Below are positions 4,397-41,567 of a stretch of DNA of 64,000 nucleotides, piece by piece. This stretch comes from an uncultured Alphaproteobacteria bacterium (lineage in GTDB: Bacteria; Pseudomonadota; Alphaproteobacteria; CACIAM-22H2). Where the stretch lies: contig CAVVJD010000014.1 in assembly GCA_963748455.1 (NCBI GenBank), positions 445,993 through 509,992 on the forward strand, written 5' to 3'. Under the pieces are notes generated by a model. That model ran no database searches. It was not told the origin of the DNA and saw only the letters and a list, made by a program, of their open reading frames with translations. The stretch's first letter is position 1. The number at the start of each line of letters is the position of its first letter. The translations under genes were made by a program, and so were the position numbers.

Positions 4397-5473
4397 ATGA
4401 GCCGTTTCTGGAGTCGCCTGACGCACGACCTGAGGCCCTATGTGCCGGGCGAACAGCCCCGCATGGCGGAGCTGGTCAAGCTCAACACCAATGAAAGTCC
4501 ACTTGGTCCTTCCCCACGCGTGTTGGACGCGATCCGCGGCGAGGCGTCCGATACGCTGCGTCTCTATCCGGACCCACAGGCCACCGCGCTGCGGGATGCT
4601 TTGGCCACCTACCACCACGTGCGACCCGAACAGGTGTTCGTCGGCAACGGCTCGGACGAGGTGCTGGCCCACGTCTTCGCCGCTCTGCTGAAGCATGATG
4701 CGCCATTGCTCTTCCCGGACATCACTTACAGTTTCTACCCGGTCTATTGCCGCCTGTTCGGAATCGCCTACGAGACGGTGCCGCTCGATCAGGTCATGCA
4801 GATCCGCGTTGCCGACTATCGCCGGCCGGCCGGCGCACTCATCCTACCCAATCCGAATGCGCCAACAGGGGTTGCGCTGTCACGGAGCGAGATCGTCACC
4901 CTGCTGGAGAACCATCCTGACGCTCCCGTGGTGATCGACGAGGCTTATGTTGATTTCGGCGCCGAGACCGCGATTGCGCTCGTCGCCGCCCACCCGAACC
5001 TTTTGGTCGTTCAAACAATGTCCAAGTCCCGGGCCTTGGCCGGGCTGCGGGTTGGCTATGCAATCGGCGACGCGGACCTGATCGAAGCGCTTACCCGGGT
5101 GAAAGACAGCTTCAACTCCTATCCGCTTGGCCGGCCCGCCCAGGCTGGCGCCATCGCCTCCCTGAAGGACGAAGCCTATTTTCAACAGAGCCGCGTTCGC
5201 GTGATCGAAGGCCGAGAGCGGCTAAACCGCGGACTGGTCCGGCTTGGCTTCGAAGTGCTGCCGTCCGCCGCCAACTTCGTCTTCGCGCGTCATCCGGCGC
5301 AGGAGGGCGCGGCGCTGGCCGCCGCGCTGCGCCAAAGGGCGGTGATCGTCCGCCATTTTCCCGCGCCTCGCATCTCCGACTATCTGCGGATAACCGTGGG
5401 CACAGACGAGCAAATCGATCGGCTATTGTCGGCCCTCTCGGACATCTTGGGCGGCGAGCCTGCAGCTGCCTGA
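4397..5473 (+). CDS. hisC: Histidinol-phosphate aminotransferase.
   Basis: Class II aminotransferase. PLP-lysine context [19 protein letters not shown] and N-terminal [15 protein letters not shown] are typical of HisC. Confidence 0.9.
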
Positions 5474-5496
5474 TTGCGCCGCGCTTTGCTTTAGGA

Positions 5497-6255
5497 TCAA
5501 GGTGCGGGCTCTTCGGTCGGCTTGCCGCCGAAGGAGATCATCAGGGTCTTCAACTCGTCCGCGGCACTCGCCAGCGTCGCGCGCGTGTGGCCGCGCATGA
5601 CGATCGAGGTGCCGACCTGGCCCATGCGGAAATACGGGTACGAGCCGATCTCAAGATCGTTGTATTTGCTTTGCAGCGCGGTCAGGCCCTCGGCGAGCTT
5701 GCCTTCGGGTACTTCGGAGGTGACGGTCCAGGACAGCATCGGCTTGCCGCCCTTGAGGCGGTGCGCGATCCCCTCGAACATGGCGTTCATGATGCGTGGC
5801 ACGCCCGCCATCACGAAGACATTGCCGATCTGGAAGCCCGGCGCCTTGCTGACCGGGTTGTCGATCAGGATGCCGCCCTCGGGCACATTGGCCATGCGCA
5901 GCCGCGCCTCGTTGAGGTCGGCCGGATTGAGGTAGTGGCTCTGCAGGCGCGCGACCGCCTCCGGGTGGCGCAACAGGGGCACGCCGAAGGCCTTGGCGAT
6001 GCATTCGGCGGTGATGTCGTCATGGGTGGGCCCGATGCCGCCGGTGGTGAAGACGTAGTCGAATTTGGCGCGGACCTCGTTGATCGTGGCAATGATCGTC
6101 GCCTCGATGTCGGGAATCACGCGGCCCTCCATCATGCGCACGCCGATGGCATTCAGCTTCTCGGCCAGCCAGGGCAGATTGGCGTCCTTGGTGCGGCCGG
6201 ACAGGATCTCGTTGCCGATGATGATGATACAGGCGGTGACAGGCTTGTCGGTCAT
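5497..6255 (-). CDS. CinA-like / molybdopterin-binding (MoCF-biosynthesis domain) protein.
   Basis: CIIIIGNEILSGRTKDANLPWLAEKL...TTGGIGPTHDDIT is the canonical CinA N-terminal/MoaB-MogA fold signature. Confidence 0.85.
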   Translation of the reverse strand: MTDKPVTACIIIIGNEILSGRTKDANLPWLAEKLNAIGVRMMEGRVIPDIEATIIATINEVRAKFDYVFTTGGIGPTHDDITAECIAKAFGVPLLRHPEAVARLQSHYLNPADLNEARLRMANVPEGGILIDNPVSKAPGFQIGNVFVMAGVPRIMNAMFEGIAHRLKGGKPMLSWTVTSEVPEGKLAEGLTALQSKYNDLEIGSYPYFRMGQVGTSIVMRGHTRATLASAADELKTLMISFGGKPTEEPAP

Positions 6256-6359
6256 GGGGTTCTCGTGCAACCGGGCGGCGGGGCGCTCACCATATCCTGG
6301 TATGCGCCGCGTTCAAGCCGGGCTTTCGCTGGCGGGCCGCATCGGCGACAATCGCGGCC

Positions 6360-7109
6360 ATGAATCGGCCCTCCGCCACACCGCCGCGCAGCTTCACGGC
6401 AGCCGACGTCGCCAAGACCGTGCACCATGCGGCCACGCAGGTGTTGCGTCAGGGGCGTGCGCCGGCGCAGCTCGCCGAGGCGGTGGCGGCGGCCAAGGCG
6501 ACGGCCGAGCGGTTCTGGGGACTGGTCCAGAAATCGGTCGAGCGCGACGGCGCCATCGCGTGTCGCAGCGGCTGCGCCTGGTGCTGTTACCAGGGCGTGG
6601 CCGTCATCCCGATCGAGGCGGTGGCGATCGCGCGACATGTCGAGGCCCGGTTCAGTGCCGCCGAGCGTGGCGCCCTCGACGAGCGCCTGGCGCGCACCCA
6701 GGCGCAGACGGCGGGGCTCAGCGTGCATGAGCGCGCGCGGCTGATGCTGGCCTGCCCGTTCCTGGTCGAGGGACGGTGCAGCATCTACGAGGTGCGGCCG
6801 TTTCGCTGTCGCGGTATTCATTCGCGCGACGCCGATTACTGCAAATGGAAGCTGGAGAATATCGACGAGGCGGTCGCGGACCCCCGCCGCGGCACTCCGG
6901 CCGACCCGCTTTTGCAAGCCCCCGTGCAGATCATGGACGCGGGCCTGGCGGGGCTGGGCGTGGCCGCCCAGGAGGCTGGCCTCGGCGGTGTCGGGCTGGA
7001 GCTGACGGGGGCCATCCAGATCGCACTCGCCACGCCCGATCGGGATCAACGATTTGCCGCCGGCGACGATCTGTTTGCCGCCGCAGCACTACCTGCGAGC
7101 GAATCTTAA
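6360..7109 (+). CDS. YkgJ-family cysteine-cluster (putative Fe-S/zinc) protein.
   Basis: CRSGCAWCCYQG ... ACPFLVEGRCSIYEVRPFRCRG matches the CxxCxxCC...C...C pattern of UPF0153/YkgJ proteins. Confidence 0.6.
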   Translation: MNRPSATPPRSFTAADVAKTVHHAATQVLRQGRAPAQLAEAVAAAKATAERFWGLVQKSVERDGAIACRSGCAWCCYQGVAVIPIEAVAIARHVEARFSAAERGALDERLARTQAQTAGLSVHERARLMLACPFLVEGRCSIYEVRPFRCRGIHSRDADYCKWKLENIDEAVADPRRGTPADPLLQAPVQIMDAGLAGLGVAAQEAGLGGVGLELTGAIQIALATPDRDQRFAAGDDLFAAAALPASES

Positions 7110-30149: not shown

Positions 30150-32473
30150 CTATTGCAAGGCCGCCCAAACCTTTGCCGGCGTCAGCGGCATCTGGATCCG
30201 GCTCGCGCGATCGGCCCGGCTGGCGCGGACGAGCGCATCGGCCACGGCGTTGACGACCGCCGGGGTGGCGCCGATCGTGCCGAGCTCGCCCACGCCTTTG
30301 ACACCGAGGGGGTTGTTCAGGCACGGCGTTGATTGATCGAGCACGTGCACGAAGTCACGAATGATGTCGGCGCGCGGCATTGTGTAGTCCATCAGGCTGG
30401 CGGTGATCGCCTGCCCGGACTCACGGTCGTACAGCATCCGCTCGCCGAGCGCCTGGCCGATGCCCTGGACCGCCCCGCCGTCGAGCTGGCCGCGCACGAT
30501 CATCGGATTGACCACGCGGCCGACATCGTTCACCGACACGTAGGAGACGATTTCGACCGTCCCGGTTTCCGGGTCGATTTCGACCTCGCAGATGTGGGCG
30601 CCATTGGGCCAGCTCGGCCCGTTCACCTTGGTTGTCGCATCGATGAAGATGCGTTGCTCCGGTTGACGCCCCGCCAACTCGAAAAGCCCGATGCGGCGGT
30701 CGGTGCCCGCGACCTGGAAGACGCCCTCGGCATATTCGATATCGGCCTCGGCGGCCTCGAGCGCGTCGCCGGCAAGATTGCGGCCGGTCTTGAGCGCCGT
30801 CTCGGAGGCGTGCCGGATGGCCGAGCCTGCCGTGAACAGCGAGCGCGAGCCGGCACTGCCGAAGCCCTGGCCGCGATCCGTGTCACCCATGACAATGCGG
30901 ATCTTGTCGAGCGGCACGCCGAACACATCAACGACAAGCTGCGTATAGGACGTCGCAATCCCCTGCCCCATCGGCATCGTCGCGGCAAAGACCTCGATCT
31001 CGCCGGCACCGGTGACCGCGACGGTGACGCGCTCCTCCAGCGCGTTGCCGCCGGTCCATTCGAGAAACGAGGCGAGGCCGCGGCCGCGCAGCTTGCCGCG
31101 CTGGCGCGAATTGCTTTCACGGGCCGCGAAATCCTGCCACTTCCCCAATTCCAGCGCCTGTTCGAGGATCGAGCCGAACTTCCCGCTGTCGTACACCTGC
31201 CCCATGGCGTTGGTGTAAGGCATCTGCTCCGGCTTGATGAGATTGCGGCGCCGGATCTCGGCCGGATCGAGGCCGAGCTTGCGTGCCGCGGTATCGAACA
31301 GACGCTCGATGATGTAGATCGCTTCGGGCCGGCCGGCGCCGCGATAGGCGCCGGTGGGTGCGGTGTTGGTCAGAACCGCGCGGAGATCGAAGTCAATCGT
31401 GCGGATGTCGTAGATGCTGGTCGAGACCCAAGGGCCGATCATCAACTGGATGATGATCGCCCGCCGTACTGCCATAGGCGCCGACATTGGCAAAGGAGCG
31501 GACGCGATAGGCCAGCACCTTGCCTTCGGCATCGAGGGCGAGTTCGGCGTGGCTCTCGACATCGCGGCCGTGCGTCGCGGCCAGAAATTCGTCGATCCGC
31601 TCGGCCGTCCACTTGACCGGGCGTTTTAGCTGCCGCGCGGCGAACGCCGCGACGATGTCCTCCGGATAGAGGCCGGTCTTCATGCCGAAACCGCCGCCGA
31701 CATCGTCGACAACGACGCGCACTTTCTCCGGCGGGATGCCGAGCACGGCATTGCAGAGCGTATCGCGCGCACCGGACGGCATCTGGCTCGACAGGCGTAG
31801 CGTCAGCCGGTCATCGCCCGAAATCGTAGCTGGCGAGCGTGCTGCGCGGCTCCATCGGGGTCGGCGCCAGGCGCTGGTTGACGAGATCGAGCGAGACAAT
31901 GTGCGCGGCGCTCTTGAACGCGGCATCGGACACCGCGGCGTCGCCGTGCTTCATCTGGGCGGCGATATTGCCGGTGGCGGCCGGCCAGATCAGCGGCGCA
32001 TCGGCGGCGGTCGCTTGCGCCACATCCATCACGACGGGCAGTGGGTCGAATTCGACCTCGATCGCCTCAGCCGCGTCCTTCGCCTGCTCGCGCGTTTCCG
32101 CGACCACCGCGGCGATGGCCTCGCCGACGAAGCGCACGATCTCGTGCGCCAGCGCCGGGCGCAGCGGCGTGGCGCCGGGCGAGCCGTCGGGACGCTTGAA
32201 GATCGGCGCCACCGGTAGCGGCTTGACCCCGGCCTTGACCAGATCGGCGCCGGTGAGGACCGCAACCACCCCGGGCATCGTCAGGGCCGCGGCGACATCA
32301 ACCGAGACCAGACGCGCATGGGCGTGCGGCGAGCGCAGGAAGGCGAGGTAGGTCTGGGCGGGCAGCGAGACATCGTCGGTGAAGCGGCCGGCGCCGGACA
32401 GCAGGCCCTTGTCCTCGATCCGAAGGACCTCGCGGCCGCTGCCAAAACGCCCGATCGTCGAATTGCCCGTCAT
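30150..32473 (-). pseudogene. Xanthine dehydrogenase/aldehyde oxidase-family molybdopterin-binding large subunit (CoxL-like), two frameshifts.
   Basis: Three consecutive ORFs (31811..32617, 31393..31926, 30150..31562) encode the N-terminal, middle and C-terminal parts of one about 770-aa Mo-hydroxylase. Shifts lie within 31811-31926 and 31393-31562. No adjacent small or medium subunit genes. Confidence 0.75.
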
Positions 32474-32712
32474 TAGCTTTTCCTCGATTTGCCAAACAGA
32501 ATCCCAGGACGCGCCCGCAAACCGGTCGCGCCGTGGCGCCCAAACGACCACGGCGCCTTGCCGCTGTCTACCCCCGCCCTTGCCCCGCGTTACATTTGGC
32601 TGCGGAACCGCCTGCAAAAGCGGCAGGACGTCGCCGGGCCGCCCTTGTGAGCGGGCGGGCGTTGGGTTACTCCCAGAGGGTCCGCACTCCTGGTGAAAGG
32701 TGCCGCGCGCCC

Positions 32713-35280: not shown

Positions 35281-35410
35281 CCCCTCTCCCCTCTGGGGAG
35301 AGGGTTAGGGTGAGGGGGTGGCGCAGGTGTCAAACACGCACGGGCAGGGCGGTCTCTTCGCCCCCTCACCCGGCTCGGCTTCGCCTCGCCACCCTCTCCC
35401 CCGAGGGGAG
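35281..35410. repeat. Hairpin-forming REP/MITE-like element, GGGAGAGGGTTAGGGTGAGGGGG family.
   Basis: CCCCTCTCCCCTCTGGGGAGAGGGTTAGGGTGAGGGGGTG ... CCCCCTCACCC ... CCACCCTCTCCCCCGAGGGGAGAGGGTT. Same family as 10858-11010 and 39401-39560. Confidence 0.8.
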
Positions 35411-35454
35411 AGGGTTTGATTGCCTCGTTGGCCGAATTGCGCTACGGCGTGACG

Positions 35455-36566: not shown

Positions 36567-36690
36567 ATGAACATGATCAAACATCTCATCGAACGCGTGC
36601 GCGACCTGATCGAGGAACGCCACGACGTCCGGCTCTTCGAGACCTGGCGCGACGAGCGCCTGGCCTTGCGCCACAGATCGCATGCGTGAC
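36567..36690 (+). CDS. Small ORF (40 aa) of unknown function immediately upstream of the nitrile-hydratase-like cluster.
   Basis: ATG at 36567; MNMIKHLIERVRDLIEERHDVRLFETWRDERLALRHRSHA*. Ends 4 nt into the next ORF. No recognisable family. Confidence 0.25.
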
Positions 36691-36745
36691 GATTAGGGTC
36701 GGCGGCCTTGCCGACCCCGGGCGGGCGGGATTAGCCTCTGATCCC

Positions 36746-37081
36746 ATGTCCCCACCCAAGCCAGCCACGCACGATCTGGGCGGCGTTGAGCCGCACGCCT
36801 CGGCCGCCATCGACCGGCGCGAGCACGCGCTCACGCAATTCGACAAGAATGTCGATGCGCTCATGTACCTGCTGTCGCACCCGTCGCGCCGGCTGATCCG
36901 GGTCGATGAGCTGCGCCGCTCGATCGAATCCCTGAGCCCCGCCGATTACGCCCGCCTCAGCTATTACGAAAAATGGCTGACAGCGATGCACGACCTGCTG
37001 ATCGAAAAGGACGTGCTGGGCGAGGAGGAAATTCTCCTCAAGATCGCCGAGCTGCGCGCCCGCGATGAGGGCGCGGCATGA
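36746..37081 (+). CDS. Nitrile hydratase beta-subunit N-terminal-half homolog (SCNase beta-like).
   Basis: ATHDLGGVEPHASAAID...DKNVDALMYLLSHP...YYEKWLTAMHDLLIEKDVLGEEEI matches the helical N-domain of NHase beta (HDLGG start, YYE.W motif). About 111 aa. Confidence 0.7.
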   Translation: MSPPKPATHDLGGVEPHASAAIDRREHALTQFDKNVDALMYLLSHPSRRLIRVDELRRSIESLSPADYARLSYYEKWLTAMHDLLIEKDVLGEEEILLKIAELRARDEGAA

Positions 37082-37380
37082 AATTCAAGGAAGGCGACAA
37101 GGTGCGGGTCGCCGCACGCTGGCCGGAGACCGGGCTTGCGCGCGTGCATATTCGCACGCCGCATTTCCTGCGCGGGCAGGCCGGTGTGGTCGAGCGCGTG
37201 CTGGGGGAGTTTCCCAATCCCGAGGATCTCGCCTTCGGTAAGCCGGGCCTGCCCAAAGTGCCGCTCTACATGGTCAAGTTCCAGGAGAGCGCTTTGTGGG
37301 CGCGCGGCGGTGGGTTCAGGCCGCAGGACACGTTGACCGCCGACATCTACGAACACTGGCTGGAGCCCGACCATGGCTGA
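37078..37380 (+). CDS. Nitrile hydratase beta-subunit C-terminal (SH3-like barrel) homolog (SCNase alpha-like).
   Basis: MKFKEGDKVRVAA...HIRTPHFLRGQAGVVERVLG...LYMVKFQESALW matches the NHase beta C-domain (FKxGDxVRV ... RxPxYxRGKxGxV ... LYxVxF). Start overlaps the previous stop. Confidence 0.75.
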   Translation: MKFKEGDKVRVAARWPETGLARVHIRTPHFLRGQAGVVERVLGEFPNPEDLAFGKPGLPKVPLYMVKFQESALWARGGGFRPQDTLTADIYEHWLEPDHG

Positions 37381-38023
37381 TCGCCACCATCACCACGACC
37401 ATGTTCATGCCGACCCGCATGCCCATGACGAGATTGTCACGCACGAGCCATCGCGCGAATTCATGCTGATGGAGCGCGCGATCCGCGAGCTCCTGATTGC
37501 CAAGGGCGTGTTCCCGGCCGACGATGTGCGCCGGCAGATCGACCTCACGGATTCGCGCAGCGAGGCCACGGGGGCGAAGCTGGTGGCGCGCGCGTGGGTC
37601 GACCCTGAATTCAAGAAGCGCCTGATCGCCGACCCCAAGGCGGCGGCGACGGAGATGGGGATCGACGTCTCCAACACGCCGGCCCTGGTGGTTTTGGAGA
37701 ACACGCCCAAGCTCCACCACCTGGTCACCTGCACGCTGTGCTCGTGCTACCCCAAGGCGATCCTCGGCATCCCGCCAGCCTGGTACAAAAGCGTCGAATA
37801 CCGGGCGCGCGCGGTGGTCGACCCGCGCGGCGTGCTGAAGGAATTCGGCACCGAGCTGGGCGACGATGTCGAGCTGCGCGTGCTGGATTCGACCGCGGAT
37901 ATGCGCTATCTGGTGCTGCCATTGCGGCCCGACGGCAGCGAGGGCATGAGCGAAACCGCCCTCGCCGGCCTGGTCACACGCGACAGCATGATCGGTGTCA
38001 CCAATCCGCGGCGGCCCAACTGA
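37373..38023 (+). CDS. Nitrile hydratase alpha-subunit / thiocyanate hydrolase gamma-like catalytic subunit, Co-type CTLCSC motif, His-rich N-terminus.
   Basis: VTCTLCSCYPKAILGIPPAWYKSVEYRARAVVDPRGVLKEFG at about nt 37728-37850 is the NHase alpha metal-binding claw (Co-type CTLCSCY). The N-terminus MADRHHHHDHVHADPHAHDE is His-rich. Confidence 0.8.
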   Translation: MADRHHHHDHVHADPHAHDEIVTHEPSREFMLMERAIRELLIAKGVFPADDVRRQIDLTDSRSEATGAKLVARAWVDPEFKKRLIADPKAAATEMGIDVSNTPALVVLENTPKLHHLVTCTLCSCYPKAILGIPPAWYKSVEYRARAVVDPRGVLKEFGTELGDDVELRVLDSTADMRYLVLPLRPDGSEGMSETALAGLVTRDSMIGVTNPRRPN

Positions 38024-38039
38024 AAGAAGCCGACCCACC

Positions 38040-39359
38040 GTGATCCCTCGTTACAGCCGCCCGGAGATGGCCGCCATCTGGGCGCCCGAAAACCGTTTCC
38101 GCATCTGGTTCGAAATCGAAGCCCATGCCTGCGACGCGCAAGCCGCGCTGGGCGTCATCCCGAAAGCGGCCGCGCAGGCCGTGTGGAAGCGCGGCAAGTT
38201 CGAGATCGACCGCATCGACGAAATCGAGCGCGAGACCAAGCACGACGTCATCGCCTTTCTGACCAACCTCGCCGAGCATGTCGGGCCCGAGGCGCGGTTC
38301 GTCCACCAGGGCATGACCTCGTCGGACGTGCTCGACACGTGCCTCGCGGTACAGCTCACCCAGGCCTCGGACATCCTGATCGCCGATGTCGAGCGTGTGC
38401 TGGCGGCGCTGAAGAAGCGCGCGTTCGAGCACAAGCTGACGCCGACCATCGGCCGCAGCCATGGCATCCATGCGGAGCCGGTGACGTTCGGGCTCAAGCT
38501 CGCCGGGTTCTATGCGGAGTTCTCGCGCAATCTCGAACGTCTGTGCACGGCGCGGCGCGAGATCGCGACCTGCGCCATCTCGGGCGCTGTCGGCACGTTC
38601 GCCAATATCGATCCGCGCGTCGAGGAGCACGTCGCCGAGAAGCTCGGCCTCGAAGTCGAGCCGGTGTCGACCCAGGTCATCCCGCGCGACCGCCATGCGG
38701 CGTTCTTTTCAGCACTCGGCGTGGTCGCGGCGTCGATGGAGCGCGTGGCCATCGAGATCCGCCACCTGCAGCGCTCGGAAGTGCGCGAGGCGGAGGAGTA
38801 TTTCAGCCCGGGCCAAAAGGGCTCGTCGGCGATGCCGCACAAGCGCAATCCGGTGCTGTCGGAGAATTTGACCGGCTTGTCACGCATCGTGCGCGCCGCG
38901 GTGGTGCCGGCGCTGGAGAACGTGGCGCTGTGGCATGAGCGCGATATCTCGCATTCGGCGGTCGAGCGCGTGTTCGGGCCCGATGCGACGGTCACGCTCG
39001 ACTTCGCGCTCAACCGGCTCGCCGGCATGCTGGAGAAGCTGGTTGTCTATCCCGAGGCCATGCAAGCCAATCTCGACGACCTCGGCGGCCTTGTGCATTC
39101 GCAGCGCGTTCTTCTGGCTCTTACGCAAGCCGGCATGAGCCGCGAGGACAGCTACAAGACCGTGCAGAAGCACGCCATGGAGACATGGTCGAACGGCGGC
39201 TCCTTCCTCGACCGCCTCAAGGGCGATCAAGCGGTCGCCAAGCTGCTCAAGCCCAAGCAGCTCGAGGCGCTGTTCAACCTCGACTACCATTTCAAGCACG
39301 TCGATACGATTTTCGATCGCGTGTTTGGGAAGACGGCCGCGAAGAAGCGCGGCAAGTAG
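38040..39359 (+). CDS. purB: Adenylosuccinate lyase.
   Basis: Full-length fumarase/ASL family with PurB N-terminus (IPRYSRPEMAAIW) and the SSAMPHKRNP catalytic loop. Confidence 0.9.
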   Translation: MIPRYSRPEMAAIWAPENRFRIWFEIEAHACDAQAALGVIPKAAAQAVWKRGKFEIDRIDEIERETKHDVIAFLTNLAEHVGPEARFVHQGMTSSDVLDTCLAVQLTQASDILIADVERVLAALKKRAFEHKLTPTIGRSHGIHAEPVTFGLKLAGFYAEFSRNLERLCTARREIATCAISGAVGTFANIDPRVEEHVAEKLGLEVEPVSTQVIPRDRHAAFFSALGVVAASMERVAIEIRHLQRSEVREAEEYFSPGQKGSSAMPHKRNPVLSENLTGLSRIVRAAVVPALENVALWHERDISHSAVERVFGPDATVTLDFALNRLAGMLEKLVVYPEAMQANLDDLGGLVHSQRVLLALTQAGMSREDSYKTVQKHAMETWSNGGSFLDRLKGDQAVAKLLKPKQLEALFNLDYHFKHVDTIFDRVFGKTAAKKRGK

Positions 39360-39564: not shown

Positions 39565-40923
39565 TTACGCCGGCAAGCCGGTCTCGAAGCAGTAATACAG
39601 CGTGCGGAAGCCTGAGCGCAGCGCCAGCGCGTCCTTCTTCACGCTCTCCGGGCTTTCGCGGCGCACGATGACGCGGGCGATGAGGTCGGCGATTTGCTCC
39701 ATCTCGCGTTCTTTCATGCCGTAGCGCGTCATCTCGATCGTGCCCATGCGCAGGCCGCCCGGATAGTCCCAATCCTTGGGCGCGTCGGTCGGGATCAGGT
39801 TCTTGTTGACGATGATGTTGGCGCGCTCGAGTGTCTGCGCGCATTCGAGGCCGCGGCCGAATTTGCGCGCATCGGCGATCGCCTGGTGCGTGGTGGTGAA
39901 GCCCTTGTGGCGACCGAGCATCGGCAGGCCGCGCTCGTCAAGCGCCTTGGCCAGCGCCTGGGCGTTCTTGACGATCTGCGCCATGAATTTTTCGCCAAAG
40001 GCGATCGCCTCGGCGGTGGCCAACGCCAACGCGGCGACACGATTGACCTGATGGGTGGCGGCCCAGATCGGGAACACGGCCGTCGTCACCTTCTCCGTGA
40101 TCGTCGGGTCGTCCCAGACGATGATGCCCGATTGCGGGCCCGCGAAGGTCTTGCCGGCGGAACCGGTCATGATATCGGCCCCCTCCTTCAACGGATCCTG
40201 GAACTGCTTGCCGCCGATCAGGCCGAGCTGATGGGCGGCATCAAAGAACAAGCGCCCACCCCACTCGCCGATCGCCGCTTTCATTTCGGCGACCGGCTGC
40301 GGGAACAGGGTCATCGACAGGCCGAGCGCCACCAGCGGCGGACGCACCGCCGGCGCGACCTTGCGAAACGCGTCGATATCGACGACGAGTTCATGCGGGT
40401 CCATCGGGATGTCGACGATCTTGCGGCCCATGGCGCCGGCCGGCCCATCGATGCGGTTGGAGGAATGGCCGCCGACCGGCTGCGCCGCGCTCATGATCAC
40501 GTCGCCCGGCGCCGACAGCGCCGTATAGACCACGGCATTGCCGACCATGCTCGCGCACATGCGGTGGTCGGCGTAGTTGCAGCGGAAGTAGCGCTTCATC
40601 AGCTCGACGCACAGCGCTTCGACTTCATCGATGTGCCGCGTGCCGGCGAACCAGCGATTGACCTTGCCGATATGACCCTCGGCGGCGCGCGTGCCGATTT
40701 CGGCGCCGAGCAGCGCACGCACGCCCGGGCTGGTCGGCGCTTCGGGCGCGAGCAGGTTGATGCAGTCCTGGCCGCGCCATTGCGCGTTGCGCGCGACCGC
40801 GGCCTTGACCGCCTCGCCCATGTCGCGCACCTCGGCACAGGCATCGAGAATGGCGCTGGCCGCGGCCAGCGCGTCGCGGTCGTGAATTTCGATCCGGTTG
40901 TGGGATACGGCCATGGCGGTCAT
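39565..40923 (-). CDS. Serine hydroxymethyltransferase-family PLP enzyme (divergent GlyA-like aldolase).
   Basis: SHMT-fold hallmarks (…NAVVYTALSAPGDVIMSAAQPVGGHSSN…, PLP-lysine region GSAGKTFAGPQSG) on a divergent sequence about 450 aa long. Confidence 0.65.
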   Translation of the reverse strand: MTAMAVSHNRIEIHDRDALAAASAILDACAEVRDMGEAVKAAVARNAQWRGQDCINLLAPEAPTSPGVRALLGAEIGTRAAEGHIGKVNRWFAGTRHIDEVEALCVELMKRYFRCNYADHRMCASMVGNAVVYTALSAPGDVIMSAAQPVGGHSSNRIDGPAGAMGRKIVDIPMDPHELVVDIDAFRKVAPAVRPPLVALGLSMTLFPQPVAEMKAAIGEWGGRLFFDAAHQLGLIGGKQFQDPLKEGADIMTGSAGKTFAGPQSGIIVWDDPTITEKVTTAVFPIWAATHQVNRVAALALATAEAIAFGEKFMAQIVKNAQALAKALDERGLPMLGRHKGFTTTHQAIADARKFGRGLECAQTLERANIIVNKNLIPTDAPKDWDYPGGLRMGTIEMTRYGMKEREMEQIADLIARVIVRRESPESVKKDALALRSGFRTLYYCFETGLPA

Positions 40924-41040
40924 GGAGAGGCTCCTTCTGGCGAATTCCCGCAGAATCTGCCACGTAATCTATGGCAATAGATTTCGTTCTGGCATTCCGT
41001 TATTTTCATACTGGAATGGGCCAGAGAGGAGTTCTTGAAA

Positions 41041-41567
41041 TGAATGAAAAGAACAGGGCGAAGTCGGGCCCACCCGAAGAGGCGGCGCCGGTGGCTCTCG
41101 ACCCAATCGACCGCAAAATTCTCGACATCCTGCAGGAGAACAACCAGGTCACGAACCTGGAGCTCGCCGAGCGGATCGGTCTTTCGCCCCCACCCTGCCT
41201 GCGCCGCGTGCGCCAGTTGCACGAGCGCGGCGTCATTGCCAAAGATGTGGCCATCGTCGATCCGGCCAAGGTCGGCCGCACCATCACCGCATTTGTCGGC
41301 GTCGAGTTGGACCGCCAACGCGAGGACGTGCTGGCGAGCTTCGAGCGCAAGATCCGTGCCGAACCTGAAGTGCAGCAATGCTATTTCGTCTCGGGCGATA
41401 TCGACTACCTGCTGGTTGTCACGTGCGTCGACATGCCGAGCTACAACGCTTTCGCACGGCGCGTGCTGGCCAACGAGCATAACATCAAGCGCTTCCGCAC
41501 CAGCTTCAACCTGTCGCGGATCAAATACGAAACCAAGGTGCCGCTGGGGGCGGCGGCTTCGGACTGA
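41041..41567 (+). CDS. Lrp/AsnC-family transcriptional regulator.
   Basis: LDPIDRKILDILQENNQVTNLELAERIGLSPPPCLRRVRQLHERGVI (HTH_AsnC) plus a RAM domain. Divergent from the SHMT-like gene. Confidence 0.85.

Follow-up and report, generated by a model that had tools for sequence, protein, structure and literature searches.

Positions 36746 to 38023 of a 64-kb stretch of DNA from an uncultured alphaproteobacterium (contig CAVVJD010000014.1; called the window below, with all statements on gene neighborhood applying to these 64 kb) carry three overlapping genes that are likely to encode an activator-independent cobalt-type enzyme of the nitrile hydratase (NHase) family. The enzyme would consist of three subunits, betaN, betaC, and alpha, in the architecture described for the Streptomyces enzyme ScNHase, and would fall in a clade found solely in Alphaproteobacteria. 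Enzymes of this design have been described before, and the cassette in the window is an uncharacterized alphaproteobacterial member. Judged by its sequence, it does not appear to be a thiocyanate hydrolase (SCNase) of the Thiobacillus type.

Gene structure and family membership of the cassette

The first gene of the cassette (36746 to 37081, plus strand) encodes betaN, a 111-amino-acid (aa), 12.6-kDa homologue of the NHase beta N-domain, ScnB, and AnhD. It is followed on the same strand by betaC (37078 to 37380; 100 aa, 11.3 kDa), a homologue of the NHase beta C-domain, ScnA, and AnhE, and by the Co-type catalytic subunit alpha (37373 to 38023; 216 aa, 24.0 kDa). The betaN and betaC genes overlap by 4 nt (ATGA), and the betaC and alpha genes overlap by 8 nt. 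In all three, the GC content at third codon positions (GC3) was 0.82 to 0.86 (0.82 in both beta halves), a coding-type value as in the neighboring genes. Pfam searches matched betaN to NHase_beta_N (E = 2e-15), betaC to NHase_beta_C (1.7e-17), and alpha to NHase_alpha (4.8e-77). Thus, the three open reading frames (ORFs) that an earlier note had read from the bare DNA were confirmed, and 36746-37081 and 37078-37380 were both placed in the NHase beta family. On the 226-position NCBIfam beta model, betaN spans positions 4 to 97 and betaC spans positions 138 to 225; positions ~98 to 137 are uncovered, and therefore the ~40-residue linker of a canonical beta subunit is absent rather than frameshifted. 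The equivalog cut-offs for a canonical NHase (TIGR01323 and TIGR03888) were reached neither by alpha (240.0 versus 249.85 bits) nor by the beta halves (52.2 bits for betaN and 56.3 for betaC versus 152.2).

In the PDB, the best match of betaN was 3qxe_B (4e-8), while betaC matched 3qyg_B (2.5e-9) and 2dd4_A (9e-6). The alpha subunit matched Co-NHases at 1e-55 to 5e-60 and SCNase gamma at 1.4e-51, and it appears roughly equidistant from the solved Co-NHases and SCNase gamma. With an AlphaFold2 (AF2) model of alpha as the query, every confident Foldseek match was an NHase alpha or an SCNase gamma; the model is of alpha alone (mean predicted local distance difference test [pLDDT] score, 72.6), and the pocket, which is built with the beta halves, lies outside its reach. 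The nearest named relatives of alpha are metagenome-assembled genomes (MAGs) of Rhodospirillales/Alphaproteobacteria. No paralogs of betaN, betaC, or alpha were found elsewhere in the window.

Conservation of the three-gene design among relatives

Relatives were sampled by scanning a single genome for each species, which yielded 80 loci with close alpha relatives. The order betaN-betaC-alpha was found in 66 of them, betaC-alpha-betaN in 4 (L017, L022, L026, and L038), and a betaN-alpha fusion in 3; the rest were cut by a contig end or had undetected partners. In none of the 80 loci did a single ORF hold the two beta halves. Among the hosts are Alpha-, Beta-, and Gammaproteobacteria, Chloroflexota, Binatia, Actinomycetota, Spirochaetia, Nitrospinota, and further groups. 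No neighbor gene was conserved beside the cassette, with the commonest non-core family present in at most 9 of 81 loci, and therefore the cassette is self-contained. SCNase genes reportedly stand in the same order, as described by Katayama in 1998. The likeness in gene order that the earlier note had drawn to SCNase thus held; nonetheless, the order is special neither to SCNase nor to this locus, as it recurs in the 66 loci and in ScNHase. In a neighbor-joining tree computed from simple distances without bootstrap, all alphas of split-beta loci formed one clade, canonical NHases fell outside it, and the gamma subunit of Thiobacillus thioparus SCNase was a long basal branch. In both the tree and the alignment, the window alpha fell among alphaproteobacterial relatives in a tight subclade marked by the signature CSCYPKAILGIPPAWYKS.

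Several loci carried variations of their own. In L083, a metagenome contig with 98% alpha identity to the window, an ~165-nt repetitive extragenic palindromic (REP)-like element with GC-rich hairpins (CCCTCTCCCTTGGGGAGAGGG ... CCCTCTCCCTGCGGGAGAGGG) lies at 2466 to 2628, exactly between intact betaN and betaC; at the matching spot (37078 to 37081), the window has the ATGA overlap. Given this insertion between intact halves, betaN and betaC are independent cistrons. A "PLPRGERG"-type repeat like the L083 element seems to be present in the window near 35300 to 35420. In L020 (~5360 to 6642) and L055 (~5590 to 6573), a His/Asp-rich segment joins betaN and alpha in one reading frame, with no betaC detectable within ±6 kb, and the enzyme possibly works without betaC. 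For L040 (CAZVDN010000040.1, labeled "uncultured Streptomyces sp."), the named close relatives of alpha are all Burkholderiales/Betaproteobacteria, and the contig is probably misbinned in its MAG. We had considered L040 as a sequence stand-in for S. canus ScNHase and dropped it because its named relatives were all betaproteobacterial. The names given to relatives diverge as well: JGI calls some of them "thiocyanate hydrolase subunit gamma," and NCBI uses "nitrile hydratase subunit alpha."

These comparisons bear on the view that the split is artefactual (through a frameshift, decay of beta into a pseudogene, or misassembly) or that the alpha-like ORF is an NHLP-type precursor of a ribosomally synthesized and posttranslationally modified peptide. 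The window does probably come from a MAG, and NHLP leader models were among the matches of alpha (TIGR03793, 3.6e-20). However, the split falls at the same place in the 66 loci, the beta linker is missing and not frameshifted, both halves have coding-type GC3 and proper starts, and those of L083 tolerate an intergenic insertion. Alpha, for its part, has its full length, an undamaged claw, and beta partners, and its NHLP matches are confined to residues 68 to 118; NHLP leaders descend from NHase alpha, which accounts for these matches. This view is thus extremely improbable, and the comparative data have already refuted it.

Catalytic residues and the substrate pocket

Residues 118 to 128 of alpha read VTCTLCSCYPK and contain the Co-type signature VCTLCSCY with Thr and Tyr. 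The metal claw, C120-T-L-C123-S124-C125-Y-P-K128, is encoded at 37730 to 37756 (plus strand) and occupies invariant columns of the family alpha alignment, in which the VCTLCSCY motif is unchanged throughout. The betaN subunit carries the motifs HDLGG (residues 9 to 13), D54-E-L56-R57-R58, and S-Y-Y-E-K-W (residues 72 to 77). The equivalent of R57 was invariant in the family alignment (76 of 76 rows), the Arg after it was present in 73 of the 76, and the YYErW motif was conserved. In betaC, the region H24-I-R26-T-P-H-F-L-R32-G is conserved, with a family consensus of H.RtP.y.rGk.G that includes a betaArg157-type arginine. Conservation thus extends to the equivalents of betaArg52 and betaArg157, the NHase residues that form hydrogen bonds with the oxidized cysteines, and to the betaTyr68 region. 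The Co-type claw proposed in the earlier note could therefore be read directly, and its Cys/Ser residues and the beta arginines proved conserved on alignment.

Two positions bear on the choice of substrate. Lys128 of alpha sits where SCNase has gammaArg136 and the NHase of Pseudonocardia thermophila (PtNHase) has alphaTrp116; most loci have Arg after CSCYP, the clade of the window has Lys, and none of the 80 relatives has Trp. On the betaN side, Leu56 aligns with ScnB Arg90 and is hydrophobic, as is the residue at the NHase betaPhe51 position. The position after CSCYP has been probed experimentally, since the PDB holds the reciprocal mutants 3vyg (SCNase R136W) and 3vyh (NHase alphaW116R). In 2013, Yamanaka and colleagues reportedly traced the selectivity of SCNase to gammaArg136 and betaArg90. 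The pocket would thus be a hybrid of an NHase-like hydrophobic residue (betaN Leu56) and an SCNase-like cationic one (alpha Lys128). From such a hybrid pocket, a small or polar nitrile, rather than thiocyanate, is suggested as the most likely physiological substrate. We agree with the earlier note in leaving the substrate unassigned, and the isonitrile that it listed as a candidate received no specific support.

Is the enzyme nevertheless a genuine thiocyanate hydrolase, converting SCN- to COS and NH3 as a functional ortholog of T. thioparus ScnBAC? The likeness to SCNase of T. thioparus THI115 (PDB 2dd4) is considerable and comprises the three-subunit split with its gene order, the Co-type claw CTLCSCYP with a cationic residue right after it (Lys128, which matches gammaArg136 in position), a His/Asp-rich N-terminus of the catalytic subunit as in ScnC, and a double Arg in betaN as in ScnB; the JGI label of some relatives also points this way. 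Nonetheless, the split, the gene order, the His tail, the cationic residue after CSCYP, and the double Arg are common to the whole split family and are not specific to SCNase. Where SCNase has features of its own, the window cassette departs from it. The thiocyan_alph model (TIGR03887) gave alpha 215.8 bits against an equivalog cut-off of 291.45, and identity to ScnC, ScnB, and ScnA was only 45, 27, and 33% for alpha, betaN, and betaC, respectively. An 11-residue insertion of ScnC (~101 to 111) faces a gap in the window alpha. The ~47-aa N-terminal extension of ScnB is missing (HDLGG starts at betaN residue 9, versus HDVGG at ScnB residue 48), as is the ~35-aa extension of ScnA, with betaC aligning from ScnA residue 36; these two extensions build the (alpha-beta-gamma)4 dodecamer of SCNase. 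Leu56 replaces betaArg90, and Arg at both selectivity positions was found in 0 of 73 relatives. Furthermore, real scn operons are flanked by a P15K-type gene, a NitT/TauT ABC transporter, DsrE/TusA, SQR, cyanase, and a cobalt transporter (PMC5328954), whereas no P15K-like, NitT/TauT, DsrE/TusA, SQR, cyanase, or cobalt-transporter gene was found at 20 to 53 kb of the window. With the SCNase-specific features absent from both the subunit alignments and the pocket, the thiocyanate-hydrolase-like character suggested by the earlier note was not upheld, and we regard a true SCNase as unlikely.

Absence of a nearby activator and the His-rich tail of alpha

Profile searches found no activator, metallochaperone, CobW-type GTPase, cobalt transporter, or amidase gene within about ±15 kb of the cassette (20 to 53 kb of the window), and no accessory-protein match in the whole window, purB coming directly after alpha; on this point, the searches agree with the earlier note. 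ScNHase likewise has no activator gene in its genome; its cobalt inserts directly under reducing conditions, and its betaN-type subunit AnhD acts as a metal and swapping chaperone (PMC7329996). The alpha of toyocamycin NHase alone can build the metallocenter (Nelp 2014, cited in PMC7329996). In the window, betaN bears a weak similarity to the NHase accessory-protein model TIGR03889 (E = 0.002). Two relatives, L028 (4655 to 5618) and L043 (4399 to 5492), carry two or three betaN-like genes in tandem upstream, and these may serve as dedicated chaperone copies. The extra copies and the weak TIGR03889 similarity would fit a chaperone-like second role of betaN.

A different account of the missing accessory genes is that the cassette encodes an ordinary catabolic NHase, whose activator and amidase lie elsewhere in the genome and whose beta split is functionally irrelevant. 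Its catalytic residues are indeed those of an NHase, the NCBI label of its relatives agrees, and our view is limited to 64 kb of the genome. Yet no activator-like or amidase gene was conserved beside the cassette in the 81 loci from many phyla, and the one tested enzyme of the same architecture, ScNHase, matures without an activator. This account is accordingly improbable.

The alpha subunit begins MADRHHHHDHVHADPHAHDE, with 8 His within the first 22 residues. Residues 1 to 25 (37373 to 37447, plus strand; MADRHHHHDHVHADPHAHDEIVTHE) have pLDDT values below 50 in the AF2 model and are predicted to be disordered. Family-wide, the segment that precedes the conserved core is 19% His, compared with 1.5% for the remaining protein, and tails with three or more His occur at 68 of the 80 loci. 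SCNase gamma (PDB chain 2dd4_C) starts MSADHDHDHDHDHDHKP (MSADHDHDHDHDHDH) and is His/Asp rich too, while the NHase alphas of Pseudomonas putida and Bacillus smithii bear HTHDHHHD and PHHHP, respectively. In the eukaryotic beta-alpha fusion NHases, a His-rich stretch stands right before the alpha domain (PMC3323583). The fusions in L020 and L055 are a bacterial counterpart of these eukaryotic beta-(His-rich)-alpha enzymes. SCNase has the activator P15K, and P. putida NHase has P14K (PMC3511329). As both of these activator-bearing enzymes carry His tails, the tail is no marker of activator-free enzymes, and the link that the earlier note had drawn between it and the missing activator was not borne out. 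A role for the tail as a cobalt-capture element is plausible.

Comparison with known enzymes and proposed mechanism

The closest parallel in design is ScNHase of S. canus CGMCC 13662, in which anhD precedes anhE and anhA; it acts as a hydratase on acetamiprid, thiacloprid, and benzonitrile (PMC7329996). It shares with the window cassette the beta halves in separate genes, the order betaN-betaC-alpha, the cobalt type, and the lack of an activator gene, and the subunit masses are similar (10.4, 11.4, and 21.3 kDa for AnhD, AnhE, and AnhA in PMC7329996, versus 12.6, 11.3, and 24.0 kDa here); it differs in being actinobacterial, whereas the window cassette is alphaproteobacterial. ToyJKL of Streptomyces rimosus, the toyocamycin enzyme, is also a three-subunit NHase and branches with ScNHase according to a 2026 review (PMC13243292). 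It differs in its place within a nucleoside-antibiotic biosynthetic cluster and in having a defined substrate.

The canonical Co-NHases (P. putida 3qxe, B. smithii 1v29, and P. thermophila 1ire) are the best PDB matches in sequence and fold, with 46 to 48% alpha identity, and have in common with the cassette the claw, the catalytic Arg/Tyr residues, and a hydrophobic residue at the betaPhe51 position. They differ in having beta as one chain of ~220 to 230 aa with a ~40-residue linker, Trp116 after CSCYP, a downstream activator gene, and R-H/F instead of R-R in beta. The toyJKL genes are said to differ in order also, with alpha first. The eukaryotic fusion NHases (Monosiga brevicollis and others) resemble the cassette in the His-rich stretch before the alpha domain and in the lack of an activator (PMC3323583); unlike it, they consist of one fused polypeptide in which beta is intact, whereas the His tract in the window is a free N-terminal tail.

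In an enzyme of the kind that we propose, the three overlapping cistrons would be translated together, and their products would form a (betaN-betaC-alpha)n complex. A noncorrin Co(III) would be bound in alpha by Cys120, Cys123, and Cys125 and by backbone amides of the claw, with Cys123 oxidized to a sulfinate and Cys125 to a sulfenate. The oxidized cysteines would be hydrogen bonded by betaN Arg57 and the Arg26/Arg32 region of betaC, betaN Tyr73/Tyr74 would complete the site, and the C-N triple bond would be hydrated at the metal. Cobalt would enter without a dedicated activator, likely by direct insertion and by betaN-assisted alpha swapping, as in ScNHase, and the disordered His/Asp-rich tail of alpha possibly raises the local availability of Co(II).

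Several points weigh against an activator-independent enzyme of the ScNHase type. Alpha falls just under the cut-off of the NCBIfam model nitrile_alph (240.0 versus 249.85 bits), and Lys128 takes the place of the canonical Trp116. ScNHase and ToyJKL are likened to the window cassette by architecture and subunit size, not by sequence orthology, and the tree that defines the clade is the simple one described above. An activator may lie elsewhere in the genome, of which these 64 kb were covered, and no amidase is nearby, unlike in classical nitrile-catabolic operons. The similar tails of activator-bearing enzymes cast doubt on a role in Co delivery; moreover, Yang, Bennett, and Holz reportedly found in 2018 that the metallocenter of Monosiga NHase could still be assembled after deletion of its His17 stretch. 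These points notwithstanding, we still consider the activator-independent three-subunit hydratase likely. A further-reaching proposal holds that the CSCYPKAILGIPPAWYKS clade is a distinct specificity class of these hydratases, its hybrid pocket (Lys128 and betaN Leu56) being adapted to a common metabolite with a C-N triple bond (e.g., a small polar or anionic nitrile), and that the disordered His/Asp tail delivers cobalt and, with betaN, replaces the activator family-wide; we consider it rather doubtful.

Upstream ORF, spacer, and purB

A 40-aa ORF (MNMIKHLIERVRDLIEERHDVRLFETWRDERLALRHRSHA; 36567 to 36689, plus strand) precedes the cassette. Its GC contents at codon positions 1, 2, and 3 (0.66/0.34/0.83) are coding-like, and its eight protein variants were all 40 aa long, with scattered substitutions. 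It was present in L083 and at the P0014 locus (91% alpha identity; 39 aa), which both share the GT9 upstream gene, and was absent from L001 (Tagaea), L081, and L084, the latter two at 80 to 81% alpha identity. There was no Pfam or NCBIfam match. The product is basic and helical. A DNA comparison of this ORF with L083 was uninformative, the two being 99% identical. The ORF probably encodes a real microprotein, which would be lineage restricted and outside the conserved cassette.

The earlier note had taken this ORF to be translationally coupled to the cassette. Starting betaN from GTG 36686 would add a 60-nt extension with a noncoding profile (0.75/0.65/0.70), and all 17 members of the betaN protein cluster are 107 to 111 aa, i.e., they start at the equivalent of ATG 36746. 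With betaN starting at ATG 36746, the 40-aa ORF ends 56 nt upstream and is uncoupled. The spacer region (36696 to 36757, plus strand) contains a 9-bp GC-rich hairpin at 36696 to 36717 and a second stem over the betaN start region. Its predicted RNA fold (-37.4 kcal/mol, z = -2.2) was equaled by 6 of 200 shuffles and is thus of weak significance. There is no U-tract, a promoter/terminator scan gave no terminator-like or promoter-like site, and the whole window, when scanned for Rfam families and tRNAs, gave no riboswitch or leader upstream of the operon.

Downstream, purB (adenylosuccinate lyase; 38040 to 39359, plus strand; TIGR00928, 3.5e-150) starts 16 nt 3' of the alpha stop codon on the same strand and is probably cotranscribed here. 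It adjoins the cassette in L083, at the P0014 locus, and in Tagaea L001, is not adjacent in L081 and L084, and in Rhodobacteraceae is separated from betaN by a FliG-like gene. We considered purB as a functional partner. The linkage was seen in three lineages of Alphaproteobacteria, but we judged it to be an inherited position, since adjacency is lost at 80 to 81% alpha identity and interrupted in Rhodobacteraceae.

Other features of the window

A serine hydroxymethyltransferase (SHMT)-like protein is encoded at 39565 to 40923 (minus strand), divergently paired with an AsnC/Lrp regulator (40971 to 41567, plus strand). It scored 320 against the NCBIfam SHMT cut-off of 335 and 217 bits with the fluorothreonine transaldolase model, and it may be a specialized aldolase/transaldolase paralog, not the housekeeping GlyA. 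Elsewhere, the large subunit of a molybdenum hydroxylase (xanthine dehydrogenase/aldehyde oxidase type) apparently lies in two ORFs (30150 to 31562 and 31811 to 32617, both minus strand), and part of the MoCoBD_1 domain is lost between the two; a frameshift, pseudogenization, or misassembly could explain the break.

Significance for the family

The window cassette itself adds nothing beyond a known design; the family to which it belongs is under-studied. Three-subunit cobalt hydratases are very widespread among soil, freshwater, and marine bacteria of many phyla, and the only biochemically studied ones that we found in the literature were SCNase, ToyJKL, and ScNHase. In databases, the other members go by inconsistent names, among them "nitrile hydratase," "thiocyanate hydrolase gamma," and "hypothetical." Simple sequence rules, based on the residue after CSCYP, the ScnB-Arg90 position, and the subunit extensions, set the members of the family apart from true SCNases and canonical NHases, and such rules would prevent the over-calling of thiocyanate degradation in metagenomes. 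If self-maturation holds true family-wide, small cassettes of this kind, which need no activator, would lend themselves well to biocatalysis.

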